DNA of 64,000 nt from Acidobacteriota bacterium (lineage in GTDB: Bacteria > Acidobacteriota > UBA6911 > RPQK01 > JACQSY01), in NCBI GenBank assembly GCA_016211085.1, contig JACQSY010000016.1, positions 20,501 through 84,500 on the forward strand, given 5' to 3'. A program made the translations under genes and the position numbers. The notes beneath the pieces are model-generated. The model made no database searches and had not been told where the DNA came from. It saw only the letters and a program-made list of their open reading frames with translations. Positions 21,062 to 35,571 of this stretch are shown here, piece by piece. The first letter of the stretch is position 1, and each line of letters starts with the position of its first letter.

Positions 21062-21151
21062 GGAGGAGTGGCCGAGTGGTTGAAGGCGGCGGTCTTGAAA
21101 ACCGTTAGGGGTTAACGCCCCTCGTGGGTTCGAATCCTACCTCCTCCGCCA
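21062..21151 (+). tRNA. tRNA-Ser (anticodon UGA), CCA encoded
   Basis: Hand-folded. Acceptor GGAGGAG/CTCCTCC, anticodon loop CT-TGA-AA, long variable arm AGGGG-TTAACG-CCCCT, T arm GTGGG-TTCGAAT-CCTAC, discriminator G, then CCA. Confidence 0.9.
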
Positions 21152-21367: not shown

Positions 21368-21944
21368 GTCTCAATCGCCTTTCGGCTCGGTCATCACTCC
21401 CTACGAAGCTAGCCAAGCCTATGACGAAGCTTACCAAGACTTGTCTCAATCGCCTTTCGGCTCGGTCATCACTCCCTACTCGTGACGTCGGTGCCGTTCT
21501 TCCCATCAGTACGCTGTCAGTTGGTCTCAATCGCCTTTCGGCTCGGTCATCACTCCCTACTCTTTGGGACGAGGCTAATCCCCAATTTCCCCCTGGGGAT
21601 TGTCTCAATCGCCTTTCGGCTCGGTCATCACTCCCTACGCTTGCCACGGGCAGAATGGCAATACGCCATCCTCTTAGTCTCAATCGCCTTTCGGCTCGGT
21701 CATCACTCCCTACAAACTCGCCTATGAAAAAGCTTATCAAGCTTGGGAGGCGTCTCAATCGCCTTTCGGCTCGGTCATCACTCCCTACTTGGCGGCCGGG
21801 ACCGCAGCATTTGGAAAAGTTGCAATGTCTCAATCGCCTTTCGGCTCGGTCATCACTCCCTACTTAAGGTTTTCAGGATTTACCAAAGAGCCCACCTTTG
21901 CTACCGGGTCTCAATCGCCTTTCGGCTCGGTCATCACTCCCTAC
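21368..21944 (-). CRISPR. CRISPR array, 8 repeats / 7 spacers
   Basis: Eight identical 37-bp repeats GTCTCAATCGCCTTTCGGCTCGGTCATCACTCCCTAC (plus strand) start at 21368, 21443, 21524, 21602, 21677, 21752, 21827 and 21908. Spacers are 38, 44, 41, 38, 38, 38 and 44 bp. On the minus strand the repeat ends ATTGAGAC, close to the canonical ATTGAAA(C/G) 8-nt crRNA tag, so transcription is inferred to run on the minus strand from the cas2 side. Confidence 0.95.
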
Positions 21945-22165
21945 AGCGGAGCCTGGAAAGTGCCAAGAAGCGCCCCTTTACAGGCCGGCTTCGGCGGCAC
22001 TGGTCTTATGCGCTGGCTAAGAGGAATTTCTGATCTGCTCATTCCCATCATTGTTGAGTTCCAGGTCGGCGGCAGAGGGCCCTTTTCGACCTTTTTCGTC
22101 TGCCGCCGAGCATCCGGCTCCCAAGCGACCTTTCGAAGAACTGTAGCATAAAAAAACGGGCAAGC
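21945..22165 (-). promoter_or_regulatory. putative CRISPR leader (between cas2 stop and first repeat)
   Basis: 221-bp non-coding gap on the cas2-proximal side of the array. It contains an 11-bp perfect inverted repeat, TCGGCGGCAGA...TCTGCCGCCGA (22066-22109). Orientation is inferred from the repeat tag. Confidence 0.5.
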
Positions 22166-22549
22166 TCACAGCATGTATAGTAGGGCGCTCTCCGGCCGGG
22201 TGGTCTTTCCCATCCCACTAATTCGCTGGACGCAGGCGCCACAGATTCGATAAACCAATATAGTATCTTCATCCGGCTCGATTTCGCTTGCAAGGTCACA
22301 CCATAATCTTGCAAACACCTCTTCACTCAGATCACATTCGAACACGCTGTACTCCACCCGGATACCGTAATCCTCACAGACCTTGGCTACGCGTCGCAGG
22401 CGCTTCGGATGTCGAATGTCGTAGGCAACCAGATGTAACATGTCTCGATACCGCATCTCCGCCGGGTTGAATTCGCCCAGCGAGTAACCGACCAGATAGG
22501 GATCGTCCTCAAAATTGCTGCTTGAATTCGGGGGAACTTCATCGCTCAT
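22166..22549 (-). CDS. cas2: CRISPR-associated endoribonuclease Cas2
   Basis: 127 aa. The core LHLVAYDIRHPKRLRRVAKVCEDYGIRVEYSVFECDL matches the Cas2 ferredoxin-fold pattern, with a ~35-aa N-terminal extension. Overlaps cas1 by 4 nt. Confidence 0.9.
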   Translation of the reverse strand: MSDEVPPNSSSNFEDDPYLVGYSLGEFNPAEMRYRDMLHLVAYDIRHPKRLRRVAKVCEDYGIRVEYSVFECDLSEEVFARLWCDLASEIEPDEDTILVYRICGACVQRISGMGKTTRPESALLYML

Positions 22550-23571
22550 GGCATTAGAAAGAATTGAAGATCCCGTTCACCTTCCATGCCCCGCAGCACT
22601 GTGGCGACGGAGCTCTCGATCACCCTTCGGAAATCTGTATGCGGCTGTCCTTTGGCCGGGGCAAATTGCCGCGACATGGTGGACTCATAGGTCGTGAAGA
22701 AAGTCTTTCGCGATTCCTCCTTCAAATAAAACCCGCCCTTTTCGGCGTCGAACCGGAAATCCGCCTCACTCAGAATGCGGTGATTTAGCAGGTTCAACAC
22801 CAATAGATCGCAGACCGGTGCTCGCAGCGGCTCCAGCAGGTCGAGCGCCAGCGAGGGCGTGCCGTGTTTAAGCCCATGCAAAAAGCCCAGGCAGGCATCC
22901 AGCCCATGCTTTCGCACGCAGCCCTCGATCTCTCCAAGCAGGATCGTATAGGACCAGGAAAGCAATGCGTTTGCCGCATCCTTCGGAGGACGTCGCGTGC
23001 GTCCGCCAAAGGGGACGTTTGGCGGGAAAAAGCAACCAAGGCGCGAAAAATAGCGGACCGCCCCCATTCCTTCGTATCCTCTCAGCTCCTCCAGAGTCCC
23101 GGCCTCCCGTGCGCGGGCTGCCAGTTGCTCCAGTTCCCGATCAACCTGTCGCTGCTCAGGTAAATGGGATTCGTCCCGATTGGCCGAGAGGCGCTGCAGT
23201 ACACGCCGGCTATTGCGCAGCTTGGCATAAACCAGCACCCGCGCCACTTCCAAGATGAAGGCAGCGTCATTTACCAACTCGTACTGGCGAACTCGCCTTC
23301 CCGCATTCTTGTTATTATCCGGACTGAGACTTCCCATCCAGCGTCCGCGCGAGGTCAGAAAGAAACAAGGAATGCCTTCGCGAAGCAACCCGTAGAGTAC
23401 GGGAAAAGAGATACTGGGTCGTCCAATGACAATGACTCGGTCCACGTCGATCAGAGGGACGCGCATCCGGGATTCCGGCTTCTTCCCCCACTCTACCCAA
23501 CGGATGACTTCAACGTGTCTGGAAATGAGCCGAACGCTGATTGTTTCACTTGAGATAACCAGACTGGCCAT
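22546..23571 (-). CDS. cas1: CRISPR-associated endonuclease Cas1
   Basis: 341 aa. Cas1 blocks RRPPKDAANALLSWSYTILLGE, GLDACLGFLHG and DLLEPLRAPVCD. No RT fusion. Confidence 0.92.
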   Translation of the reverse strand: MASLVISSETISVRLISRHVEVIRWVEWGKKPESRMRVPLIDVDRVIVIGRPSISFPVLYGLLREGIPCFFLTSRGRWMGSLSPDNNKNAGRRVRQYELVNDAAFILEVARVLVYAKLRNSRRVLQRLSANRDESHLPEQRQVDRELEQLAARAREAGTLEELRGYEGMGAVRYFSRLGCFFPPNVPFGGRTRRPPKDAANALLSWSYTILLGEIEGCVRKHGLDACLGFLHGLKHGTPSLALDLLEPLRAPVCDLLVLNLLNHRILSEADFRFDAEKGGFYLKEESRKTFFTTYESTMSRQFAPAKGQPHTDFRRVIESSVATVLRGMEGERDLQFFLMP

Positions 23572-23603
23572 ACACTTTCACTTCTTCCGTAAGCTGCTGC
23601 CGC

Positions 23604-24887
23604 TTATATCTTTAGAATCGGGAAACGCCAGAGATCGGACTCCCCGGCACCCAACAAATAGAGGGCATCCTGGAAAATCCCCTGAAAATTGGCTTCCCTC
23701 ATAGGTACAAACCCGTGCGCCAATATGGAGCGGTTGCGATCTGCCAGATGCCCCGTAAGCTGCTTTTGGATTTCCCGATAGCGGCGGCCCACCGGGTCCT
23801 GCAGTTCCGCGAGCAGCTCCAGCGCCTGAATTGCCCCGATGCGTACCTTGCGGGCCATGCCATCGGGAGTCTCCTCTATCTGCGTGTACCTACGCTCGTA
23901 TTCAGCTCTCAATTTGCCCGGTATCCGCTCCAGCCGGACATCACTGGTACTAATGCCATGTTGGGAAAGCTGGCGCTGGGCGGTTTTTTCGATCGCGGCG
24001 TAGCACCGGGCGACCGCATCCTCGTATTTCTGCTCCAATTCCGCGCGACGCAGCGCGTTGGCAAGGAGGTCATGGATGGCCTCCCAGGTGATCTCGCCCG
24101 GTTCGATGCCTTTCAAGGTTTGGGCCAGCTCCTGCACTTCATCTGCAAAAGGCTTGAGAGTGGGAGTGATCCAATGAGGCGTCTGGGCCAGGTCGCACAG
24201 CGGCTGCAGGTTTTTAAAAAGCAAATTTTTCGCCCCGCGGTGATTGAAGATATCCCACTGATAGAAAGCTTCAAATATTTCGCCGAGAACGATGTAAAGA
24301 CGCTTTGAATACTCGTCATCGACTCTGCTCCGGATGTGCCTGAGCAGACCGGCGGCGTTTCCGTACTGCCCCCGGTTGAATAGCTCCACCGCATCTCGCG
24401 CCTCGAGCCAGGCAATCCGGTTCCAGGGATTCTCCTGCCGGAACATCCTTTCCTTGCCCTCAATCACGACACCCAGACCTTCCTTCGTGCGGCCGGAGGA
24501 GTCGGGCGTCCCGATGTAGGCGACGCGGCAGGGATACCTAGAAGAAGCAAGGATAAGCGCGGCACTCATGGTCTTGGTGCCGGCCGTGTAATCGACCAGA
24601 TCAGGCCACTCCAGTTCTCGCTCTCCCAATCGGCGCAGCGCCCGGGGGACTTCGCGCAGCAGGGTGAAGACAGTTTCCCCAAGGTCTTGCTCGTCCTCCG
24701 TCACGATGAACTCGTGGTCAGGCAGACGTCCCGGATCCTGAAGCAAGGCAGGCAAAATCTCATCGGTCACAAGTCGCCGCGATCCAGGCGAGGTGAAAAA
24801 GAGAACCCGCTCGGCCCCATGCTGGCGAATCGAAAAGATGATCGGGCCGGGCGTTCCCCCGACGCTGATGAGAAGAGTGCTAGGCAT
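23604..24887 (-). CDS. csx1: CARF-HEPN protein (Csx1/Csm6 family, TIGR02710-like), predicted cOA-activated RNase
   Basis: N-terminal Rossmann-like CARF (MPSTLLISVGGTPGPI...DYTAGTKTMSAAL) and a C-terminal HEPN R-x4-H motif (DRNRSILAHG). Start taken at ATG 24887 behind GGAGCGAAGGG (track ORF starts at 25055). Overlaps the upstream stop by 8 nt. Confidence 0.8.
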   Translation of the reverse strand: MPSTLLISVGGTPGPIIFSIRQHGAERVLFFTSPGSRRLVTDEILPALLQDPGRLPDHEFIVTEDEQDLGETVFTLLREVPRALRRLGERELEWPDLVDYTAGTKTMSAALILASSRYPCRVAYIGTPDSSGRTKEGLGVVIEGKERMFRQENPWNRIAWLEARDAVELFNRGQYGNAAGLLRHIRSRVDDEYSKRLYIVLGEIFEAFYQWDIFNHRGAKNLLFKNLQPLCDLAQTPHWITPTLKPFADEVQELAQTLKGIEPGEITWEAIHDLLANALRRAELEQKYEDAVARCYAAIEKTAQRQLSQHGISTSDVRLERIPGKLRAEYERRYTQIEETPDGMARKVRIGAIQALELLAELQDPVGRRYREIQKQLTGHLADRNRSILAHGFVPMREANFQGIFQDALYLLGAGESDLWRFPILKI

Positions 24888-26130
24888 AACCCTTCGCTCC
24901 TGTAATGCCGCCTCCGCTTTGCGCCTGAAAACGGGCGCTGATCTGGTCGCCGATAAGAAGTTCCACACCAAGGGATTCCGCCCAGTTGCGGTATTTTTCC
25001 TCTTCGTCTTCTCCGACCCGCAGAACGGCCAACATGGCCCGGGCGTGACTTCCACCGAGGGTCCTGGCGCGCTGAACGAGCGCCTCCATGTGTTCGAGGG
25101 GAGCGCGATTTTGAAGCGATTGCTTGCAGGAGATCACCAGCAACCTGCAGGCTACGCGGTCCACACAGACCACGTCGGTTTCTCCCAGCGCCCGGTCCTG
25201 TTGGCGTATAGGTTCGAGGCTCCATTGCATGTCGCCAAAGGCGGGATTACGATGCAGCAGGTCGACAACGAACAGCTCGAGCCACGATCCTTCAAGCAGA
25301 TTCGAAAGGGTTTCTAGCGCGCCCTTCAGGTCCCTTTTCTGTGAGGCCCGGCAGAAGGGAAAGAAGTTTCCACCCTCTTGTTTCAGCAGCCTGGCGGCTG
25401 CGGCAGCACAAAGAAATTCCAATACGGCACCGTCCCTAGGGGCGGGAAGTGGCTTCCTGACTAACTCGTCCAGCTTTTCGCGGCTTGCGGGGATCTTGCC
25501 CTCGTGGCAGCGGAAGTGACTGCGCAGCTGCCCTTCGAAATCAAGGAAGGCAGGCGTGGCTTTCAGTTTGAACGGCCAAGCCGCTCGCCCGAACTCGAGC
25601 TGCTCAGGTTCAATAGGTTTCGACCGTAGACTCCCCGGCTCCTGGCCATTCGCTGCAGCGATCAGCGACACGGTCAAATATTTCGAGAGCTGATCGAAAT
25701 CCAGGCCGTTTAAAGCGCCTCCTTCCGGAGCCCAGACGAAGCGGCGTCTCGCGCTGTCACAGTAAAGGGTCCGGACGTTGCGTTCGAAGGCCAGTTGGAA
25801 GGCGCCGACCGATATCATTTTGGTCCCACCGGTGTAGTTGAGGACGGTGTTTTCAGGGTCTGCAAACCAAGGGGCCAAATCGGCGTATACCTGGTTCACA
25901 GTCGGGTACTCCTCGCTCAATTCGTAATCGACGAAAGTGGGAGCATGTCCGCCAAAGTCGGGGTACGATTCAGCGAGGTGCCGCACGGCGGCTTCGATGC
26001 TTTCCAACTGCACCCGGTGCAAACCCCGGCTGCGCACCTGCACGATGCGGCCCGGCCGAAAAGCCATAATCGGCAGCAGGTTCTGCAGCGTCTGCTCGCT
26101 CACGAGGTGGATGAGGGTAAAAGCATTCAT
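24880..26130 (-). CDS. can2: CARF + PD-(D/E)xK-like nuclease protein (Can2/Card1, DUF1887 layout)
   Basis: N-terminal CARF (FTLIHLVSEQ...NYTGGTKMISVGA). The C-terminal restriction-endonuclease-like region is GSWLELFVVDLL...GETDVVCV...LLVISCKQ. ATG 26130 has a strong SD (GGAGGG, 6 nt upstream). The alternative GTG at 26193 overlaps the cmr1 stop (GTGA). Confidence 0.75.
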   Translation of the reverse strand: MNAFTLIHLVSEQTLQNLLPIMAFRPGRIVQVRSRGLHRVQLESIEAAVRHLAESYPDFGGHAPTFVDYELSEEYPTVNQVYADLAPWFADPENTVLNYTGGTKMISVGAFQLAFERNVRTLYCDSARRRFVWAPEGGALNGLDFDQLSKYLTVSLIAAANGQEPGSLRSKPIEPEQLEFGRAAWPFKLKATPAFLDFEGQLRSHFRCHEGKIPASREKLDELVRKPLPAPRDGAVLEFLCAAAAARLLKQEGGNFFPFCRASQKRDLKGALETLSNLLEGSWLELFVVDLLHRNPAFGDMQWSLEPIRQQDRALGETDVVCVDRVACRLLVISCKQSLQNRAPLEHMEALVQRARTLGGSHARAMLAVLRVGEDEEEKYRNWAESLGVELLIGDQISARFQAQSGGGITGAKGYA

Positions 26131-26189
26131 GAAGCTCCCTCCGTCGTGCTGCAACGCAACACGACTCGCCTGGAAGCGATGAGAACAAT

Positions 26190-27017
26190 TCACGCGAGGG
26201 GGATTCCCTCTCCGCCGATGGGCTTAGACGTCAGGAGCTTGAGCCCGTCGCCAGCTCGGTGGTCGTCCGGTCCTGGAAACCCGACGCGTAAGATCCAATA
26301 CGGCTTGCTTTCGTTAGCCAAACGAATGACCTTGAACTTGAGGGGTGATGATTGCCTTCCTTGCGACCCTGCATATCCCAATTTGCCTGTCCCGTCCATT
26401 ATTGTGTCACTGCAAACCCTTCTGGCTTCCTCAGGAGTGTCAAAGGGCGTCTTGAGCACGTCCATTAGTGCCTGCCACAACGGGCCGACAGATATTTCCA
26501 GGTCAAGCTTGAGCGCGGTTTCCCTGAGCTTTGACAGTTCGTGTCTCATGGAGTCGATAGACTGGGGTCCGTCAGCGGGCCAGACCGAGCCCGCGCCGCG
26601 GTTGGAGCGAAAACCTAGCCCACCCAGTAGGAGCCAGGTTCGCACGGCCAGCTTGGCCAGTTCGAAAAGCCGTTCAGGCTGACCTGGTCTGGAAGCAACT
26701 TGGATTGTGAACGTACCGTTGGCTGCGAGAGCCGGTGCTCTGAATTTTTTTGAATGGGGCAGGATTAGCTCCCGGCGCGCTTCCAGCACAGCATTCCTAA
26801 GCTGGAGCCCAACTGAGCTAGAGCGGTTTTCCGCTTCCTTATTGCCAGCAGAGCCAAAAACCTGGCTTTCCAGTTCCCGATTTGTACCGAGCGCGCGAAG
26901 CCACCAGCGCAGTTGGCCTCGGATGGAGGAAACACGGATTTCGGCTCGGTCGTTAGGATACGCTCCTCTGCAGAAGCACGGTGTGAGCAAGTCAATCTTG
27001 AATTCCTCAATTCTCAT
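26190..27017 (-). CDS. cmr1: type III-B RAMP protein Cmr1
   Basis: 275 aa. LLTPCFCRGA...EIRVSSIRGQLRWWLRA...VFGSAG...LLGGLGFRSNRGAGS is the Cmr1 N-domain pattern. It is shorter than typical Cmr1 and sits after cmr6 rather than before cas10. Confidence 0.8.
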   Translation of the reverse strand: MRIEEFKIDLLTPCFCRGAYPNDRAEIRVSSIRGQLRWWLRALGTNRELESQVFGSAGNKEAENRSSSVGLQLRNAVLEARRELILPHSKKFRAPALAANGTFTIQVASRPGQPERLFELAKLAVRTWLLLGGLGFRSNRGAGSVWPADGPQSIDSMRHELSKLRETALKLDLEISVGPLWQALMDVLKTPFDTPEEARRVCSDTIMDGTGKLGYAGSQGRQSSPLKFKVIRLANESKPYWILRVGFPGPDDHRAGDGLKLLTSKPIGGEGIPLA

Positions 27018-28348
27018 GACAAATCCACTCCCAGCACTTTGGCAGCTTCTTCGAGAGCCTCTAACCGCTTCCGATCCGGGCGGGTTCCGCTGCTGCGAAT
27101 GTTTTCCAGAATCGAACGCTTCGGGCCAATCAAAGTCTGAAGCAGGATGCGAATTTCCGGTCTCGAATAGTCGGTCCGGTGGCGCAATTCGTTGATCTTT
27201 GCCCGAATTTCATTGTCCGAGAGAGCAGAGAACTGGTTGACGCCTTGTTTAATTTCAGTTTCGGGCATCTCTTTCACTGCTTCCCGGCGACGTCTTGCAT
27301 CGGCTTCTTCCGCAAACTTCTGCTGCCGCTCTTCATCGGGGAGAAACCAGCCATAGCCGGCATTAGTTTTAGCGCCGATTCCGAACCATTTCAGTCCCTT
27401 CTTGAGCCAGTTCACGGCCTGATCATCTTGAGCGATCACGGCAAAGACAAAACTATTACCTGGGGCCACGGCCGGGAAGAAGATGACCGGGCCCGGGTCT
27501 TCCGTATCGGGGGCAACTTCAAAGTCGGGTTCACCCTGGTAGTACTTCTGATGGTGGCAAGTCAACACATCAAGTTCCAGCGAACAGGTCGCCGTCGGGT
27601 GGGCGGGGAGGAACTGCCCCCGCCCAGCAAAGTGGCCGAGCTGGCGATCGAAGTTCTCCGAAGAAAAGTCGTTACCGAACACCTCTTGCCAGAGACGTGC
27701 CTTGATCTCTCTGACAAACGTTCTGTTCCAGAGGCGATCCCCCAAGGCAAAAGCGAAATCTGAACGTTCCTTTTCCCAGTCCTGTTTGAAGTCTTCCTTC
27801 GTCTTCCAGTCCTGGGCTCCCCAGCCGAAAGTCAGGGCAATCTTGATCAACAGTTCGAGCTTCTGTTCATCCGGTGCGTCTAACAATTCCTGAATTGCCA
27901 TTCGACGAGCACAACCTTTGACGGCGCTTCCCGGAATGTAGGGTTCGCCAGAGAATCGGTCCAAGCAAAGCCCGGCATTCTCCATGACGCCTCCCGCCAT
28001 GTTGACCATCATGCGTGACTGGAGTTTGGCGAAGTAAAGACCTCCGTCAGGTACACCAAGGCGACCTCTGGGGCAGATGTCTTTGAGCCAGGACTGCAGG
28101 AAGATCTCGGCTTCGGAGTTCTTCTTGTCGAGAGCCGACTCAAAGAAATCCCTTCTCGCTTCGTTCTTCCAGTCTGGATTGGCATAGCGGTCCAGTGACA
28201 GAGAGCGTGAAGCACACTCAATGTTGTCGACTTTGCCCTTCCACTGGATCGCTCCTTGCGTATCCCCAGGTAGGTGGATTGAATAGTTTCTTTCGCCTTG
28301 CCCAGGCTTGTCTGGCCTCCTGGATTTCTGACCGCGATTGCCTGGCAT
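27014..28348 (-). CDS. cmr6: type III-B RAMP protein Cmr6 with an extra ~109-aa C-terminal helical extension
   Basis: Cmr6 blocks MVNMAGGVMENAGLCLDRFSGEPYIPGSAVKGCARR and the terminal G-rich loop FGIGAKTNAGYGWF. The protein then continues for ~109 more residues. Start at ATG 28348 (MPGNRGQ), 1 nt after the cmr5 TAA and behind AGGAGGAC. Confidence 0.85.
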   Translation of the reverse strand: MPGNRGQKSRRPDKPGQGERNYSIHLPGDTQGAIQWKGKVDNIECASRSLSLDRYANPDWKNEARRDFFESALDKKNSEAEIFLQSWLKDICPRGRLGVPDGGLYFAKLQSRMMVNMAGGVMENAGLCLDRFSGEPYIPGSAVKGCARRMAIQELLDAPDEQKLELLIKIALTFGWGAQDWKTKEDFKQDWEKERSDFAFALGDRLWNRTFVREIKARLWQEVFGNDFSSENFDRQLGHFAGRGQFLPAHPTATCSLELDVLTCHHQKYYQGEPDFEVAPDTEDPGPVIFFPAVAPGNSFVFAVIAQDDQAVNWLKKGLKWFGIGAKTNAGYGWFLPDEERQQKFAEEADARRRREAVKEMPETEIKQGVNQFSALSDNEIRAKINELRHRTDYSRPEIRILLQTLIGPKRSILENIRSSGTRPDRKRLEALEEAAKVLGVDLS

Positions 28349-28349
28349 C

Positions 28350-28748
28350 TTAGTCCTCCTCCCGCCCCTTCTTTTCTGACTTGACCGCAAATCGCTTCAG
28401 ATAAGCCAAGTACGCAAGGGCCTCATTGGTGGCCAGCCGCAATGCTGCTGAAGTTGATGTTTTACCACTTAGCTCTTCGATCATCCCCTTCGTGCCCTTC
28501 GTGTTCCGAGCGCCCTGAAGTCGTGCAATTTCGGGATCAAGGAGGTGCTGAACGATGGCATCCATAGCGATTTTCAGCTCGGGACTCTGCTTGCTCTTTC
28601 CCTCCGCGAACGCCGCGGCTGCTAGAAGGCCGTTATTGACAATCATGGCGGGAAGCCGGTCCACACCCTCTTTCTTCACAGGTTTCGAATTCCTGGAATC
28701 GGTTGCAACGAGTGCATTTCGTGCGCGAATCTGTTCGAGGTTCTGCAT
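28350..28748 (-). CDS. cmr5: type III-B small subunit Cmr5
   Basis: 132 aa, all-helical (MQNLEQIRARNAL...NGLLAAAAFA...ALAYLAYLKRFA). It sits between cmr4 and cmr6. ATG 28748 lies behind AAGGAGGGTGA. Track ORF starts at 28880. Confidence 0.8.
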   Translation of the reverse strand: MQNLEQIRARNALVATDSRNSKPVKKEGVDRLPAMIVNNGLLAAAAFAEGKSKQSPELKIAMDAIVQHLLDPEIARLQGARNTKGTKGMIEELSGKTSTSAALRLATNEALAYLAYLKRFAVKSEKKGREED

Positions 28749-28749
28749 T

Positions 28750-29649
28750 TCACCCTCCTTTTGGGTAATTGAGCGTGAAGGTGCACCAACCCAGGCCGGT
28801 TGTTTCATTGCCTCCGAGCTGGATGGCTTTTCCGTCCAGGGCACGCAGTTTAGACAGACTGCCAGCCGGGTTGTGCCCATTGATTTTTTGGCCGGCCATC
28901 ATCCCATAAAAGAGCGTCTCGGCGGGACAGTTCTCCTGGTTGAACAGGGCGCGGGCCTTTGCGGTTCCCGTGTCATCATCAATGGCAACGTGCTGGGCCA
29001 CTTCGCACGCGCTTTGAACGAAGAAGGAAAAGATGCCGTCAGGAACGATCACCAGGCGGTCTTTGAGCAGCTGCCAAACTCGCTCATTCTGAAGGATTTT
29101 GAGCAGGTGTTCTTCCCATTTCGCTCGAACATCGTCCTGGGCTGGAGGAGCAGCAGTGAAGGTGTACTCCTCCAGGACAACCTTCTTCTTCTCGGTTACC
29201 TTGGTCCCGGCGAGCACCGTGACGCTACCATCCTCCCCTTCCTGAACTGTGTCCAAGCCCTTCGCGGAAGGAAAATTATCAATCGTCACGTCTCGCGAGT
29301 AACGAGATAGCATTAGCGGACAAGTGATCCAGGCGAAACAACCTTTGGCTGAGCGCACCGGAAAGGCTAAAACACGTGCCTCTCCGATCAGCAAGGTTCC
29401 CGCATACGACTGGCTTTCGCCGTCGCTTGTAGCCTTTCCAAAGAGCATATCGGCGTCCGGCTTGAGCTCAGGGTGATCTCGAAGAACCCCCTTCAGCCCA
29501 CTTCCCGGTACGATCGGAATGCGCGTATGCGCTTCCCGTTGGATCGGCAGATCGATGTAACCGACCGATTGTCCGGCGCCCACGTGCAATGGCGTGCGAG
29601 TGAAAAGAAAATAAGGACATTGATCGGCGCTGTGTTCAGGCATTTTCAT
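28750..29649 (-). CDS. cmr4: type III-B backbone RAMP Cmr4
   Basis: YFLFTRTPLHVGAGQSVGYIDLPIQREAHTRIPIVPGSGLKGVLRD is the Cmr4 N-terminal motif, including the catalytic-loop Asp. C-terminal QLGGNETTGLGWC. ATG 29649 overlaps the cmr3 TGA (ATGA). ATG 29643 is also possible. Confidence 0.9.
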   Translation of the reverse strand: MKMPEHSADQCPYFLFTRTPLHVGAGQSVGYIDLPIQREAHTRIPIVPGSGLKGVLRDHPELKPDADMLFGKATSDGESQSYAGTLLIGEARVLAFPVRSAKGCFAWITCPLMLSRYSRDVTIDNFPSAKGLDTVQEGEDGSVTVLAGTKVTEKKKVVLEEYTFTAAPPAQDDVRAKWEEHLLKILQNERVWQLLKDRLVIVPDGIFSFFVQSACEVAQHVAIDDDTGTAKARALFNQENCPAETLFYGMMAGQKINGHNPAGSLSKLRALDGKAIQLGGNETTGLGWCTFTLNYPKGG

Positions 29650-30941
29650 TCCCCCTTTCCAAATTTGTCCATTTTTTGGTTTTCCCAGGTCCCGCACACG
29701 CCGAGACCCAGGCCTTTTTCCCCCAGGTAGTCGGAACGGCAGCGGTTTTGCAGTGCCGCCTGAAGCTTGAGGGTTTCTGCCTCGCTGTCGGTCTCAAAGT
29801 AGAAAACGGACCCAGCGGGTACGGCGAGGAAGGTAGGGCGGCCGCCACCTTTATTCTTTTTCTCATCGACCTCGGTTTCCTCCCGCAGCAATTCCCATCC
29901 GCTCATAACTCTTGGTTTGCCAATACAGGCAGCAACCAACCGAGCGCGGATCCTTTGAGCAGGATCGCTTGCTTCGTCGTATTGCCACCCCGCATCACGG
30001 CGTTGCCGTCGAAGAGCCCGGCGCGCATCCTTGTCGATGACGCGCAGCATGACCCTGCCGTCAGTTCCAATCCATCCCGGGTACCACCCATGGCTAAAAA
30101 TTGCCGGTATGACGAGCATCCATTTCAGATATTGGGTCGCAAGCTCAACCCTGGGTAGAACGAGATCTTCCGACACCCCTGCGATTCGTCCGAAACGCTG
30201 TTCGCCGCCAAGCTGCAAAATAGTACCGTCCAAGGAGTCCAACGTGACCCCGGCCTCCTTCATGTGGTCGGTCTTGTGGGCTGGTCGTTCGGCAACGGCA
30301 AACCGAAGCGACACTTTGTCGGCAAGCCGCAGATGTTCGGTCCCGTAAAGCTGACCCGGGACGGCTCCATGAGTCGCCGGGTTGATGGCGACTCCAATTC
30401 GGTGCTCGCGCCTCCAGAGAACATTCTCTATGGCAGGGATCGCATCTCCCGTTAAGTACTGTTGGAGCAAACCTGATGAAATCCAGTCCGGCTGTGGCTC
30501 TTTTGAAGGCTCCTCGAAAGAAGCAGGGATTTGCTGCAGAAAGCCACCTTGCAGGTTATCTAGGAATTCGCTTCCCTTCCCCTTTGGGCGCTCAATCAGC
30601 CGGAGAAACTCAAAGTCCCTACTTTTACTTTTCACCAGATCGCGCGGCGCTGGGAAAAAGAGCTCCTTGGCGTCTCGGACGGGAAATGGGCCGTGAAGGT
30701 GCAACCAGTCAAAAGCGGTTGTGCCCAACTTGCCGGGAACCCTCCCGTTTCGTGGAGTCTTGTCTTTATCTTTCTTGAGTGGAAGACAGTCCGCGTTCCG
30801 GAGGAGCGCGGTTCTCAATGCCCCGTGCAGCACGGTGGGCAGAGGCCAATTTGCTCCACGCCCGTAAACATTGCCCGCCGCAATAGGTCGGGCGTCTCGA
30901 ACGAATAGGGTATCGTTCGGCTTGAAATCAAATGTCTTCAC
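29646..30941 (-). CDS. cmr3: type III-B Cmr3 (Cas5-like)
   Basis: 431 aa. MKTFDFKPNDTLFVRDARPI...WPLPTVLHGALRTALL is the Cmr3 start pattern. The GTG start lies behind AAAGGAGGTGA. Confidence 0.88.
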   Translation of the reverse strand: MKTFDFKPNDTLFVRDARPIAAGNVYGRGANWPLPTVLHGALRTALLRNADCLPLKKDKDKTPRNGRVPGKLGTTAFDWLHLHGPFPVRDAKELFFPAPRDLVKSKSRDFEFLRLIERPKGKGSEFLDNLQGGFLQQIPASFEEPSKEPQPDWISSGLLQQYLTGDAIPAIENVLWRREHRIGVAINPATHGAVPGQLYGTEHLRLADKVSLRFAVAERPAHKTDHMKEAGVTLDSLDGTILQLGGEQRFGRIAGVSEDLVLPRVELATQYLKWMLVIPAIFSHGWYPGWIGTDGRVMLRVIDKDARRALRRQRRDAGWQYDEASDPAQRIRARLVAACIGKPRVMSGWELLREETEVDEKKNKGGGRPTFLAVPAGSVFYFETDSEAETLKLQAALQNRCRSDYLGEKGLGLGVCGTWENQKMDKFGKGE

Positions 30942-31312
30942 CTGTCACCTCCTTTTCGAATGAAACTGGCTGTCATCAATGGGCCGAGAAAGTCATCCAT
31001 GGAGCGTTTCTGTTGACAGCAAGTGTTGAGGTAACTGATCACTCGATCCTGCAACACTTTCTTTGTTTCCTGAAGCTCTGGGTATCCCGGATCGTGTGTC
31101 TGGAGCTTTTTGGAATGCCGATCCAGGGCATATTTGAATTCCTGCTCGATGATCTCCTGGGCCGGCCATCCCGCCGCGCCGAGTCGAAACGACTGCCCGC
31201 TTGAAGCAAGAGAGACCATTGGCTTCCGCACGTAGGGCTGAAGAACAGCCTGAAAGGCGTAGGGAAACCTCTCTCCGAGAGCATCTTCTGTTCGAGAGCA
31301 CTCTGGACCACT
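30938..31312 (-). pseudogene. cas10: cas10 C-terminal segment, readable only in the -1 frame relative to the main cas10 ORF
   Basis: This frame is open from 31312 down to TGA 30938-30940: ...DALGERFPYAFQAVLQPYVRKPMVSLASSGQSFRLGAAGWPAQEIIEQEFKYALDRHSKKL... Its stop overlaps the cmr3 GTG (GTGA) and it contains the cmr3 SD, as at the other junctions of the operon. Past ~31265 the main frame turns into low-complexity text and stops at 31039, leaving a 97-nt gap. Confidence 0.6.
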
Positions 31313-33945
31313 TCAAAGAGTTCGACGGCCCCTCCCTCCCACTTGGCCCCCCACTGCAGCACTTCACCGGATCGTTTCGCGAGATTCACCGCAAAGGCTG
31401 CCTTCCCGTAACCGTCTTCCCCCTTCGCCTTTTTCCCCGCCTCTCGAGCGGCAGCGATCAGTGCTTGCAGGGGTGTGTGCATGTGGCCCATCGCGATGCC
31501 AGCCGAGATCTCCGCATTGCGCCCCGGGACGACCAGGGGATAGCCTCGGGGGAGGTGCTTCTTCTCGAAACGGGACCACCCGTCCCACCCGCCATTCAGT
31601 GCCACGAAGCCCCAGTCCAGCGCCAAACCCTGCTCGTTCTCCTTCTGCAATACGCCGGGAAACACGTCGCGTAGACCTAAACCAGGGTCGCCAGGGTCGC
31701 CTCGAAAGGCCATGCGAAGAGCCGACGCGCAGGCAAATGCACTCCGGGCCGGCAACATCGCCAGGACGTCATCACCGCCTGCATAGATCAGTTGGCCGTT
31801 AAACCAATCAATAATTGGAGCAACTAGAAAGACGGCAAAGTTGCTGAGTGCCTCGCTGAATTGCAGGTGGTAACTCGGAGAGACATGCCTGGGCGCAGTC
31901 AGAAGAGGACGGAGCAAATCATTTCCATCGAAATATTTCCTTGCACTCTCAGCCAGCTGGCCGCCAAGTGGGGGCGTCTTCCCCCCGGACAGCCACTTTC
32001 CCATCGAGTCTCCGTCCATGGCCAGGACGGCGACGTAGCGCAAGGGTTTATCAATCTGTTTGTGCAGCTCTCGGAGTGCGTCCCGCGCTTTGCCTAGTCT
32101 GCGCAGGTTATCCTCATTGGCAAGCTCCGCGTTTCTAACGTCTCGAATCTGTCTTTCCCATTCGACGTCGTGAAAGGCGGCCGCGTCAGTTGTGTCCAGC
32201 CAATCGGCAAGACTACTTCCGAGGAGCCGGATGGCGGGAAAAAGATCGCTCGCGGCTGAGGCTGCATCAGCAAAGCGCCTGGCAAGCTCGTCGACTGCGG
32301 GTTCCTTGATGTTTTCCCTGAGTTTTTGAACCCACACACTCGCTGCGATCGCGGGAATGGAGTCAAACTGTACTCTTCTCCGCTTGAGCCCCCACGTTTT
32401 ATCCAGATACGCCAGATGCCAGATCCGCTTGATGAGGTTGAGCGCGCCCAATCGTTCCTTTTCATCGAAGAGAAACTTCGTCTTCAGTTTAGCCAGCCCC
32501 TTTTGCCATTCCTCACTTCCAATGACTTCTTCCTTCCCGGAGAACATGTCCTTGACAGCCCCCCTCCGGCTTTCGAACGAGCCCAATGCCCAGGGAGCGA
32601 AGTCCCGGGTATTTTTCCGGCCAGCCAAATAAAACTCCGTCAGGGCGTAATGAGCCGCCCAGGCGAATCCCGGGTTATCAATTACTGGAAAACCTTGCTC
32701 GTCAGGGATTATTTCGGAAAGCCATTGCCCACTCTCGGGATCCTGCCAAGCCCGATGTTTGTAGTTTCTGGCATCGAGATCGCTTTTGGGGATTCCTTCG
32801 CAGGCCGCCTTCACTCGGTGGCTGAGTGCATCTGCGGGCGGAATACGAGGCTCGTCGGAGAATTTCCCTGCTGAAGGGATCTGATGAAACAGGGATATGC
32901 TGGCATTTAGATCTTTCCACTCCCAAATCTGCCAATAGAACTGAAGAAACTGATCCAGTTGCTGACGCCATCGGTCCAATGCCTCAGTTTCAAGCGCGTG
33001 TCCTTTCTCTTCAAACCAATCGAGGCAGGTCGAACCGATGCGCTTCAGCTCTTCTAAGATCGCGCACCTGACCGAAGCTGCAAGCCCCCGAGCTCGGTCG
33101 GCATGCACAAGAGCGAGAAAACGGTTAGGGAAGTTGGGGGTAAGAATCTGCTCATCCTTAGGACGAATCTCTGACCACACGCTCTCGCCAAAAAACTCCT
33201 TATGCAGGAAATCAAAAAGTGGTCGCCTCCAGAGAGAAGGGAAAAGAACGGAGTCGGGACCCTCGCGATCGGCAATCTCTTTGAGTCCATGACACATCAG
33301 CCAGCTGAGCAGGTAACTGCCGCTCCAGCAGTCGCGAGTGGTGCGGGCCTGTTCAATGAAATCCTGCACGGGTCCGATTTCAAAAAGCAGGAAGGCAGGC
33401 TTCAATTCGCTGTCGTGTTGCCCCGTTTCATCCATTGCACACGCCTGAAGTGCACTGACGAGACTGCAGTGGGTCCAGATCGTGTGATCCGGAATGCGGG
33501 TATCCGCCGGCAGGAAAGCGAGGTGCGGGTCGGACTCTGCACAATACTGCGGCCAAAGGCGCCAGTGAAGAAAGAAATTCCGCTGGTAATCCTCGTCACG
33601 ACCCAGCATCTGCTGGTGTTTTGCCACCTTGTCTTCGGCATCGGCTTCACTGGCGATAGGTTGTGAGATCCGGAAGCGTCCCCCGCCCAGTGGATGGTGG
33701 AATATCTGCGTGTCGCTCCACTTGACGGCTAGGGCGCGCGGATTCGGAAACGCGATGCGATCTGCGCAGGCGGCCATTCTGTCCGCCTCCTTGTTCATCC
33801 GGCGGTTTGCCAGTTCCTCGGAGAGACCGGCCTGGGCGATCAACCCTTTTGCGATTTCCCAGTGTTCTCGGAGCGAATAAGGTTTATTCGGCGGATCATG
33901 TAAGAACGCCAGCAGTTTTCGTTTCCAGAAATCGGGGTTATTCAT
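31039..33945 (-). CDS. cas10: Cas10/Cmr2, type III-B large subunit (main frame; 3' end apparently frameshifted)
   Basis: N-terminal Cmr2 HD-type region (MNNPDFWKRKLLAFLHDPPNKP...HHPL...PADTRIPDHTIWTH). Cyclase/palm motif IYAGGDDVLAMLPA. Start at ATG 33945 behind AAGGAG (track ORF starts at 33987). Confidence 0.9.
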   Translation of the reverse strand: MNNPDFWKRKLLAFLHDPPNKPYSLREHWEIAKGLIAQAGLSEELANRRMNKEADRMAACADRIAFPNPRALAVKWSDTQIFHHPLGGGRFRISQPIASEADAEDKVAKHQQMLGRDEDYQRNFFLHWRLWPQYCAESDPHLAFLPADTRIPDHTIWTHCSLVSALQACAMDETGQHDSELKPAFLLFEIGPVQDFIEQARTTRDCWSGSYLLSWLMCHGLKEIADREGPDSVLFPSLWRRPLFDFLHKEFFGESVWSEIRPKDEQILTPNFPNRFLALVHADRARGLAASVRCAILEELKRIGSTCLDWFEEKGHALETEALDRWRQQLDQFLQFYWQIWEWKDLNASISLFHQIPSAGKFSDEPRIPPADALSHRVKAACEGIPKSDLDARNYKHRAWQDPESGQWLSEIIPDEQGFPVIDNPGFAWAAHYALTEFYLAGRKNTRDFAPWALGSFESRRGAVKDMFSGKEEVIGSEEWQKGLAKLKTKFLFDEKERLGALNLIKRIWHLAYLDKTWGLKRRRVQFDSIPAIAASVWVQKLRENIKEPAVDELARRFADAASAASDLFPAIRLLGSSLADWLDTTDAAAFHDVEWERQIRDVRNAELANEDNLRRLGKARDALRELHKQIDKPLRYVAVLAMDGDSMGKWLSGGKTPPLGGQLAESARKYFDGNDLLRPLLTAPRHVSPSYHLQFSEALSNFAVFLVAPIIDWFNGQLIYAGGDDVLAMLPARSAFACASALRMAFRGDPGDPGLGLRDVFPGVLQKENEQGLALDWGFVALNGGWDGWSRFEKKHLPRGYPLVVPGRNAEISAGIAMGHMHTPLQALIAAAREAGKKAKGEDGYGKAAFAVNLAKRSGEVLQWGAKWEGGAVELFEVVQSALEQKMLSERGFPTPFRLFFSPTCGSQWSLLLQAGSRFDSARRDGRPRRSSSRNSNMPWIGIPKSSRHTIRDTQSFRKQRKCCRIE

Positions 33946-34138
33946 CGGGTGCGTTCTCCTTTCGTTTCCTTTGCGGCTTCGCTCCAACCTCCCGACCTGC
34001 CCCGACGGGCGGCAAAGGTGGGTGACCAGCCCAGATGCCGGTCACGCCCACCTGGGGAGGACCGCCGCTCTCTGGCCCAGCGCTGGGTGGCCGGAGATGA
34101 TCCGATCTTAGCCGCCTTCGAAAACGGACGCTGGGTTT

Positions 34139-34158
34139 CTGACGTCCGCGGACGTCAG
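34139..34158. promoter_or_regulatory. perfect 20-bp palindrome CTGACGTCCGCGGACGTCAG (hairpin/operator candidate)
   Basis: Self-complementary over all 20 nt. It includes the TGA stop (34155-34157) of the CARF-wHTH gene and lies ~195 nt upstream of the cas10 ATG. A T-run follows it only on the plus strand. Confidence 0.4.
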
Positions 34159-35279
34159 GCTTTTTGCACGATTCGGAGCCGCTGCGCCGGAAAGCGCGGC
34201 AAATCCCCCTTCTTGAGATCGGGAAGCAGATCATTGACCCAGGACGGATCGTCGCCGGTCTTCCCCAGCTTGGCTCTCAGCGAGGAAGCCCACTTTCTCA
34301 CGTCGGATTTAACATCCAGGCGACGGTCCTTAAACTGGCAGAGCCACTCCGGATCGTTTCTTCGGTCCAATTCCTTTTGTCGGAGGGAATCGAGTTCTTG
34401 GCCTATTTCATGCCACGAGGACCACGGTCGGCCCGCTTTCAGCCGTCTCGCCACTATAAGCAGAAGCGCAAACTCGGCCTTCGTGACCTTGACCTGGCGG
34501 CCATCGATTTCAACGGTGGCCCTGGACTCATCGAGTATGACCTCCGGCATTTGCCTTTCGCCCAAAATCCCTTGGACCTGGTCGACGAGTGTGGAAAAGG
34601 AAGGGGGCAGATTTCTGAAGCGATCCCGATACAGCTGCCGGAGACGCACAAAAGGCACGTCGACCAGCTCGATTCGGGCGTCGACGGACCGAACTGCTAC
34701 GCCTGAATCCGGAATACGGTGAGTCATGCCCGGTTCGGGAAAGAGAAAAGGAGGCCTTAAATTTGGCGAGTCGTAGGGAGGATTGACGAGAACATGGCAC
34801 AAGAGGTCAACATGCGGCCTGGCCAGCAAAGTCATGCACGACGTCAGGAGGGCTGACATCGTCTTACGCCCGCCTGCCAGCGAGGCAATGAGCCGCGTCT
34901 CGGGATCCTCCGTATACCCGCGCAGGACGCGGAGAATAAAGTCCCCGGCCGCCCGGCTGTCGTGCGAACTCACTAAGTCTTCCAGTTCGCCGGTTTCGTC
35001 AGGCCTGGAAAAGACGCGAATGGAGTTGTTCGACGGGCCGAACCTGAGACGATTCTTAACCCCGAAGCCCTGGGAGGCCAAGTGCTTCAACAGCCGATTC
35101 CATCCTCCCTGATGAAAGAGCTTAGTACGGATCGCCTCCCTGCCGCTGGTCGTCGTGAGAACCAGCACCTCTTCGGGAATCAGCCGCCGTTCGACCGCAA
35201 GAGCCCAGACTGTCTCGGTGAGGATGGCCGGAGAGATTCCCATCACGGCCAGAAGCGTAGTCCTGTACGATTGAGCCAC
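34155..35279 (-). CDS. CARF-domain protein (NE0113/TIGR02584-like) fused to a winged-helix-like C-terminal domain; putative cOA-responsive regulator and/or ring nuclease
   Basis: GTG start. N-terminus TTLLAVMGISPAILTETVWAL plus LAGGRKTMSALLTS are the hallmark strands of this CARF family. The C-terminal ILDESRATVEIDGRQVKVTKAEFALLLIVARRLKAG resembles the OmpR/PhoB trans_reg_C wHTH. Confidence 0.7.
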   Translation of the reverse strand: MAQSYRTTLLAVMGISPAILTETVWALAVERRLIPEEVLVLTTTSGREAIRTKLFHQGGWNRLLKHLASQGFGVKNRLRFGPSNNSIRVFSRPDETGELEDLVSSHDSRAAGDFILRVLRGYTEDPETRLIASLAGGRKTMSALLTSCMTLLARPHVDLLCHVLVNPPYDSPNLRPPFLFPEPGMTHRIPDSGVAVRSVDARIELVDVPFVRLRQLYRDRFRNLPPSFSTLVDQVQGILGERQMPEVILDESRATVEIDGRQVKVTKAEFALLLIVARRLKAGRPWSSWHEIGQELDSLRQKELDRRNDPEWLCQFKDRRLDVKSDVRKWASSLRAKLGKTGDDPSWVNDLLPDLKKGDLPRFPAQRLRIVQKA

Positions 35280-35513: not shown

Positions 35514-35571
35514 CTTGAAAACCGCTGTACCCTGACGGGTACCGTGGGTTCGAATCCTACCTCCTCCGCCA
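35514..35571 (+). pseudogene. displaced tRNA-Ser 3' half (anticodon loop to CCA), attR-like
   Basis: CTTGAAAACCG (matches 21094-21104), an 18-nt different but self-pairing variable arm (GTACCC-TGAC-GGGTAC), then 28 nt identical to the tRNA T arm, acceptor and CCA. It has the same 58-nt length as the corresponding tRNA segment. No 5' half is present. Confidence 0.75.

Follow-up and report, generated by a model that had tools for sequence, protein, structure and literature searches.

Signalling by cyclic oligoadenylates (cOA) in CRISPR-Cas systems of type III switches on nucleases, proteases, deaminases and membrane proteins, with one sigma-factor route, CalpL/T/S; to our knowledge, a transcription factor that senses cOA directly has been studied only in the case of archaeal Csa3. 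The NE0113 family (TIGR02584, PF09623) is common in bacterial type III-B loci and has been predicted to be regulatory since 2014, when Makarova et al. listed it with Csa3 among CARF proteins that have no enzymatic effector domain and that they predicted to be transcription regulators (PMC4012209). Two surveys from St Andrews either put transcription factors to one side or leave this family out of the ring nucleases that they list. Here we describe a member of 374 amino acids (aa) encoded in a CRISPR-Cas locus of type III-B (Cmr) that has three CARF proteins and occupies 21.3-35.3 kb on the minus strand of a 64,000-nucleotide stretch (the window) of an Acidobacteriota bacterium contig (JACQSY010000016.1, positions 20,501 to 84,500). 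The source genome is a draft of 152 contigs, 87% complete and 3.5 Mb in size. The protein joins a CARF domain to an OmpR/PhoB-like winged helix, and a palindrome that recurs beside its homologues lies between its gene and cas10. We think that it is probably a cOA-sensing, palindrome-binding regulator of the cas10-cmr-effector operon with a ring-nuclease reset. The features that bear directly on this are as follows.

34155-35279, minus strand: NE0113/TIGR02584/PF09623-family gene, 374 aa, CARF plus OmpR/PhoB-like winged helix (hidden Markov models, HMMs; homologues; AlphaFold2; Foldseek)
34605-35279, minus strand: CARF domain, residues ~1-225 (Foldseek, alignment)
34158-34547, minus strand: OmpR/PhoB-like winged-helix domain, residues ~245-374 (Foldseek, weak profile matches)
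34139-34158, no strand assigned: perfect 20-bp palindrome CTGACGTCCGCGGACGTCAG, candidate operator (palindrome search, genome counts, relatives)
34105-34110, minus strand: TAAGAT, predicted -10 hexamer in the promoter of the cas10-cmr operon (offset 38 from the palindrome centre)

The 374-aa protein is an ordinary member of a widespread family. It is matched by PF09623 (E 3.5e-26, 92.7 bits against a cut-off of 23) and by TIGR02584 (148.9 bits, cut-off 80.65), both models spanning residues 9-236 only, and a homologue search returns at least 874 proteins, mostly of 360-400 aa, that align from end to end. The preliminary description of this DNA, made from the sequence alone, left open whether the fusion of a CARF domain to a winged helix had been described; it is in fact the standard architecture of this large family, predicted earlier to be regulatory (PMC4012209), and is not new. 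The same description had read the N-terminal domain as an NE0113/TIGR02584-like CARF, with which both the HMM scores and the fold search agree. An AlphaFold2 model built from the homologue alignment has a predicted local distance difference test (pLDDT) score of 94, and the best Foldseek matches of its N-terminal half in the PDB are the CARF domain of Cad1 (E 7.6e-5 to 1e-3), two ring nucleases (Sis0455 and Sso2081) and Cam1. Motif I is G14-I15-S16-P17 (GISPAILTET, 35211-35240) and motif II is G137-R138-K139 (AGGRKT, 34860-34877). Across an alignment of 81 full-length homologues, S133, A135, G136, G137 and R138 are invariant, K139 is kept in at least 90%, and G14-x-S16-P17 is conserved. The label CARF5/Crf5 can be applied with some caution, from the structural closeness to Cad1 and from Table S2 of a 2025 classification, where Cad1 and related CARF proteins are Crf5, with the roles of sensor, effector and ring nuclease assigned to them (PMC12669027).

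The ~150 residues that follow had been proposed to be a winged helix of the OmpR/PhoB type, and profile, structure-prediction and fold searches concur. Modelled alone, the C-terminal 149 residues give a pLDDT of 91, and OmpR/PhoB DNA-binding domains make up about 40 of the 50 best fold matches in the PDB, including those of BaeR, YycF (2d1v, prob 0.97), ArlR, CpxR, VicR, PhoP, RpaA, VanR, KdpE and PhoB. Weak sequence and profile matches are to CpxR, KdpE, ArlR, MtrA and RstA (E 0.04-0.8 for KdpE, ArlR and CpxR). Structure prediction gives a CARF N-terminus and a C-terminal fold resembling DNA-binding domains. The C-terminal domain has an N-terminal beta-sheet, an 'LSxxEFA' helix and an 'LRxKL' helix; helix 1 is TKAEFALLLIVARRL (34440-34484) and the putative recognition helix is SDVRKWASSLRAKLG (34263-34307), and an insert of ~25 residues with a conserved Trp lies between helices 2 and 3. 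Near-invariant residues of the domain in the 81 homologues are E269, W312, R335, K337, L351 and P353.

The palindrome between the regulator gene and cas10 has the core ACGTCCGCGGACGT (34142-34155), of the form ACGTCC-NN-GGACGT, and the stop codon of the regulator gene falls inside the 20-bp repeat. A palindrome search beside homologues shows that this core recurs in many distant loci. We compared 80 related genome loci (1.10 Mb), mostly from Verrucomicrobiota, Kiritimatiellia and Lentisphaerae with some from Proteobacteria and Acidobacteriota, many of them short contigs without a cmr match. These contain 12 exact and 39 one-mismatch copies, compared with 0 and 2.8 +/- 1.9 in first-order Markov simulations. 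The specificity is also seen at the scale of whole genomes: the 3.5-Mb genome to which the window belongs has a single exact copy, that between the regulator and cas10, and the genomes of 14 relatives (~81 Mb) have 18, versus 0 for a reversed control pattern. Sixteen of these 18 are at intergenic positions of type III-B loci, and the two others, inside long open reading frames (ORFs; L082 and L084), look like chance matches; four copies that seem at first to be orphans sit directly upstream of further cas10 genes. Sites in the relatives are found upstream of cas10, of the regulator gene and of cas1, in the gap between cmr3 and cmr4 at 62-89 nt from cmr4, and 44-54 nt before card1.

Several features of these sites connect them to the protein. 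The half-site sequence is conserved and the central NN is variable, as expected of a site bound by a protein dimer; the motif tracks the NE0113 gene across phyla; and the locus in the window encodes no other DNA-binding protein. Half-site variants ACATCC/ATATCC are present in two loci (L073 and L023), and in six proteobacterial loci (L075, L069, L076, L079, L067 and L070) palindromes of the GCAAGCTTGC type replace ACGTCC-NN-GGACGT. The putative recognition helix reads YF[ED]xxxSR[IL] in the GCAAGCTTGC loci versus DLR[KR]xLSxLRxKL in those with ACGTCC-NN-GGACGT, a covariation that is confounded with phylogeny. In the closest relatives the operator falls within the regulator coding sequence or at its extreme end. 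Because GACGTC encodes Asp-Val, an operator embedded in the 3' coding end should place 'DV' in the C-terminal tail, and 'DV' is present within the last 30 residues of 45 of 118 homologues (38%), against 10% of other 30-residue windows. An inverted repeat at 34017-34052 and other short intergenic repeats are without counterpart in the relatives. A regulon extending beyond the cas10 operon in this genome is unsupported, there being no further credible operator copies in the window.

The genomic setting of the family is also consistent: sampled relatives whose flanks are informative have their gene in a type III-B locus. Genes of the cmr set lie beside the homologue in 43 of the 80 loci (by a Cmr4 match), with cas1/cas2 in others, and two arrangements can be distinguished: layout A, regulator-cas10-cmr3-4-5-6-1, as in the window, and layout B, in which the cmr genes are followed by a Card1-like or CARF-HEPN gene, the regulator, cas1 and cas2. 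Layout A is found in each of the three nearest relatives that we looked at (46-53% identity). One close relative (L090:1801-3272, L091:3564-5035) has a nucleotidyltransferase/HepT-like toxin-antitoxin pair directly upstream of the regulator, together with a 90-aa ORF with a Cas3_HD Pfam match in the same position.

The palindrome is phased with a promoter element. With 36 related sites aligned by the centre of the palindrome, 21 have a [T/C]ANNNT hexamer that begins 37-39 nt downstream of it (background ~0.8 per offset; binomial 3e-16), and the phasing is confined to the orientation of the gene downstream. The corresponding hexamer in the window, TAAGAT, would place the transcription start near 34098 and the operator centre at ~-50, with the operator spanning ~-57 to -44; at the -35 position stands CAGCGT, which matches poorly. 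In two relatives, L088 (TAGACT) and L090 (TATGCT), the operator is followed by 31 nt and then the -10-like box, and the spacing in the window is identical. The preliminary description had proposed cOA-controlled transcription and/or signal shut-off, a role strengthened by the finding of a conserved palindrome phased with a -10 element before cas10 and by the retention of both ring-nuclease motifs.

Eight relatives with layout B (L013:3177, L042:5005, L047:15290, L055:6721, L059:4488, L061:3095, L063:5053 and L065:694) have an operator and a -10-like box in the short cmr3-cmr4 gap, with the -10 ending ~6-12 nt before the cmr4 ATG. Their placement suggests an internal regulator-dependent promoter with leaderless or very short-leader cmr4 transcripts. 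In the window cmr3 overlaps cmr4, and there is no operator at this position. Two other roles for the intergenic region were considered and rejected: a structured leader or riboswitch in the cas10 5' untranslated region (33940-34100), where folding is no better than that of shuffled sequences (z -0.51), the tRNA beside the CRISPR array being all that Rfam matches, and an intrinsic terminator of the regulator gene, for which the sense strand has no U-tract.

The three CARF ORFs noted previously are all present on the minus strand. Reading down from 35.3 kb, the gene order on this strand is the NE0113-family CARF gene, cas10/cmr2, cmr3-4-5-6-1, the Can2/Card1-like gene, the CARF-HEPN gene, cas1, cas2 and the CRISPR array. 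The components other than the regulator are as follows.

31039-33945, minus strand: cas10/cmr2 main frame, 968 codons as assembled, ATG at 33945 (HMMs)
30942-31270, minus strand: cas10 continuation in the other frame (frame comparison)
29646-30941, minus strand: cmr3 (HMMs)
28750-29697, minus strand: cmr4 (HMMs)
28350-28880, minus strand: cmr5 (HMMs)
27014-28390, minus strand: cmr6 (HMMs)
26190-27017, minus strand: cmr1 (HMMs)
24880-26130, minus strand: Can2/Card1-like CARF plus PD-(D/E)xK-like protein, 416 aa (Pfam, structure match)
23604-24887, minus strand: TIGR02710/TtCsm6-like CARF-HEPN ribonuclease, 427 aa (HMMs, structure match)
22546-23571, minus strand: cas1
22166-22549, minus strand: cas2
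21368-21944, minus strand: CRISPR array, 8 repeats of 37 nt

The 37-nt repeat terminates in ...ATTGAGAC on the minus strand, so that the array and the cas genes read in one direction. No cas6 is present within the locus (window 21368-35279), despite the array and the cas1-cas2 module. A complete tRNA-Ser(UGA) at 21062-21151 adjoins the CRISPR array, and part of its 3' half is repeated in direct orientation at 35514-35571, just past the regulator gene; the copy is identical to the tRNA in the anticodon loop and the final 28 nt and divergent in the variable arm. The ~14.4-kb CRISPR-Cas locus is therefore flanked as an island integrated at a tRNA would be, with no integrase visible.

Cas10 had been credited with an intact cyclase motif, from which cOA signalling was expected. 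The motif (GGDD; IYAGGDDVLAMLPA, residues 720-733, 31747-31788) is indeed present, but the cas10 frame is broken near its 3' end in this assembly, at GGAGAGAGG, a (GA)n run at ~31265-31275. An HD-like motif, FLHDPP, is found at 33889-33906. Beyond the break the main frame is nonsense and stops 97 nt before cmr3, and the last ~109 residues run on in the other frame as RFPYAFQAVLQPY...FIRKGGD, a typical Cas10 C-terminus that reaches the start of cmr3. Together the frames give ~1001 aa (892 + 109), the same length as the Cas10 beside the closest homologue (L088).

Of the two effector CARF proteins, the product of 23604-24887 had been interpreted as a CARF-HEPN protein with an R-x4-H motif, which is borne out. 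It scores 169 bits with TIGR02710 (cut-off 83.9), has Pfam matches to Csm6 HEPN (E 5.5e-23) and Csm6_6H, and carries RNRSILAH at residues 384-391 (RSILAH 386-391; 23715-23738), and its nearest solved relative is Thermus thermophilus Csm6 (5fsh, E 2.6e-14). For the product of 24880-26130, a CARF plus PD-(D/E)xK-like protein in the Can2/Card1 layout had been suggested. Both Card1 domains are found, with narrow passes for CARF_Card1 (PF23400, 26.4 bits, cut-off 24.6) and Card1_endonuc (PF09002, 29.2 bits, cut-off 26.4); the protein matches Can2 (7bdv, E 1.3e-3) and aligns to Can2 and Card1. The designation as a nuclease is less secure: the catalytic D is present (GETDVVCVD, 25159-25185), but VISCKQ (25120-25137) occupies the position where Can2 and Card1 have VIECK, such that the catalytic D...ExK motif of PD-(D/E)xK nucleases is absent from this protein, its ExK being S-C-K. 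The S/N-C-K variant occurs in 12 of the 14 Card1-like proteins of related loci with NE0113 genes, which makes it a conserved clade variant and not a local lesion. This SxK group is a distinct subclade whose nuclease chemistry may be altered. Studied members of both effector kinds, TtCsm6-like and Can2/Card1-like, respond to cyclic tetra-adenylate (cA4), and two cA4-type effectors within one locus are common (PMC11229360). The particular combination of a Card1-like and a CARF-HEPN protein was not seen in any of the 80 related loci.

Turnover of the signal by the regulator itself is a further consideration. In Sso2081, motif I is G9-T10-S11 and motif II is G104-R105-K106 (PMC10018336), and both of these Crn1-type motifs, G-x-S and G-R-K, are kept in the 374-aa protein. 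The CARF domain of Cad1 binds cA4 with nM affinity and cleaves it (PMC12669630). Judged by these motifs and by structural closeness to the CARF domain of Cad1, the 374-aa protein could plausibly bind cOA and turn it over.

The mechanism that we propose combines these elements, and in it we infer DNA binding by the protein, the identity of its ligand, the direction of regulation and its ring-nuclease activity. The Cas10 cyclase would supply cOA to the three CARF proteins. A dimer formed through the CARF domains would place two winged helices on the palindrome ACGTCC-NN-GGACGT beside a weak promoter, and binding of cOA, probably cA4, would alter the output of the cas10-cmr-effector operon promoter. 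Activation would be likelier than repression, because the operator is positioned upstream of the promoter elements. The retained G-x-S and G-R-K motifs would let the protein degrade its ligand and so reset the switch. A broader and more tentative reading, possible though we would not presume it, is that NE0113/CARF5 winged-helix proteins are in general cA4-gated, self-resetting activators of the OmpR type that form the transcriptional arm of bacterial type III signalling, acting at ACGTCC-NN-GGACGT near -50 of weak promoters (those of cas10, cmr4, effectors, cas1 and sometimes their own gene). If this is true, target recognition by Cmr would boost the whole interference and adaptation machinery in a positive feedback.

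The operator evidence is shared by the opposite arrangement, a cOA-released repressor whose apo form on the palindrome keeps the cas10 operon low until cOA frees the promoter, similar to Csa3b-type repression. CRISPR-Cas loci are often repressed without infection (PMC12205988), and a partial TG is kept in the -35 region of the relatives, so that these promoters may not strictly need an activator. However, the site is upstream of the -35 and -10 and does not cover them, and the poor -35 match in the window suggests activator dependence; we regard repression as unlikely. It is also conceivable that the protein is a stand-alone ring nuclease degrading cA4, with the winged-helix-like domain serving dimer architecture or the gating of the ligand site as in Crn1, and that the palindrome is unrelated to it. 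In NCBIfam, TIGR02584 carries the name 'CRISPR-associated ring nuclease Csm6', motifs I and II are both kept and hardly vary, the nearest folds include Sso2081, Sis0455 and the self-cleaving CARF domain of Cad1, and Table S2 of PMC12669027 flags Crf5 as sensor, effector and ring nuclease. Yet a ring nuclease alone does not account for a conserved palindrome that follows the gene across phyla, is placed at promoters in those same loci and occurs almost nowhere else in the genomes, nor for a recognition helix that changes along with the palindrome type, nor for a C-terminal fold that matches DNA-binding OmpR/PhoB domains, the LRxKL helix among the matching parts. DNA binding and ring-nuclease activity can moreover coexist, and we consider an exclusively enzymatic role decidedly unlikely.

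A role for the palindrome at the RNA level, as a terminator, processing site or stabilising hairpin, or as the site of some other factor unrelated to the NE0113 protein, appears very improbable. Its sequence allows an 8-bp stem closed by a CGCG loop, a consensus scan reads it as a plus-strand terminator followed by a T-run, and in relatives it is often inside operons, between cmr3 and cmr4. The sense (minus) strand, however, has no U-tract after the palindrome, and half-sites that are conserved while the central NN varies are the opposite of structural covariation. The directional -10 box at a fixed distance puts the palindrome upstream of the transcription start, and the motif is also found upstream of the first genes of loci (cas10, regulator).

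Set against a cOA-responsive regulator acting at this palindrome are a number of observations. In the fold search the winged helix gets weak E-values (0.03-4), with template modelling (TM) scores of 0.5-0.6 when normalised by target length; Pfam Trans_reg_C (PF00486) does not match the 374-aa protein at E <= 0.01; and in the model the canonical C-terminal beta-hairpin wing is absent, a helix and one strand being present instead. Crn1 also has a winged-helix-like C-terminal part (PMC8643638), yet was characterised as a ring nuclease. At one mismatch or fewer the motif is found in only 31 of the 80 related loci, and the loci without it must use diverged sites; within the window, a scan allowing up to 3 mismatches finds nothing credible besides 34142-34155, for example upstream of the regulator. 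A centre at ~-50 with half-site centres 8 bp apart is unusual, and this geometry does not settle activator versus repressor. Signalling may be defective in this particular locus, given that cas10 is frameshifted in the assembly, and the searchable literature yielded no experimental study of any NE0113-family member.

For this locus the regulator gene is itself ordinary; what is new is a defined candidate operator, a promoter geometry and a set of target promoters, which make the 2014 prediction directly testable. If confirmed, it would tell us whether their own alarm signal leads bacteria to increase CRISPR expression or spacer acquisition.

Among characterised proteins, Csa3 (Csa3a/Csa3b of the Sulfolobales; PDB 2wte, 6wxq) is likewise a CRISPR-Cas-encoded CARF sensor with a winged helix; it binds cA4 and palindromic sites in cas promoters, a functional logic analogous to that proposed for the 374-aa protein. 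The two are nonetheless distant. The winged helix of Csa3 is MarR-like, whereas that described here is of the OmpR/PhoB type (N-terminal beta-sheet, LRxKL helix); the CARF clade is another one as well, Foldseek placing Csa3 structures no higher than ranks 31 and 36 with E ~0.01, and the C-terminal domain does not match Csa3; the Csa3 family model TIGR01884 does not match the 374-aa protein at E <= 0.01. Csa3 is archaeal and linked to type I-A systems, whereas the 374-aa protein is bacterial and belongs to a type III-B locus, and we know of no ring-nuclease activity in Csa3. Crn1 (Sso2081, Sis0455) shares the CARF fold, the G-x-S and G-R-K motifs and the presence of an extra C-terminal domain, but is ~180 aa long, has a helical insert, lacks an OmpR-type domain and belongs to clade CARF7/Crf7 and not CARF5; no conserved operator is reported for it.

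The OmpR/PhoB response regulators (PhoB, KdpE, YycF/WalR, BaeR) resemble the 374-aa protein in the predicted fold of the DNA-binding domain and in the placement of their sites, which lie just upstream of, or replace, the -35 of activated promoters. They differ in input domain, a phospho-accepting receiver (REC) that the 374-aa protein does not have, its input domain being a CARF; in their usual direct repeats, where an inverted repeat is found here; and in lacking the ~25-residue insert with its conserved Trp and the altered wing. Cad1, a CARF-adenosine deaminase (PDB 9c77, 9ofb), has the closest CARF fold, with an output that is a hexamer-forming deaminase in Cad1 and a predicted DNA-binding domain here. 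With the NE0113/TIGR02584/PF09623 family itself the agreement extends to length, the two domains, motif I (G-x-S-P), motif II (GGRK) and the type III-B setting, without structural difference.

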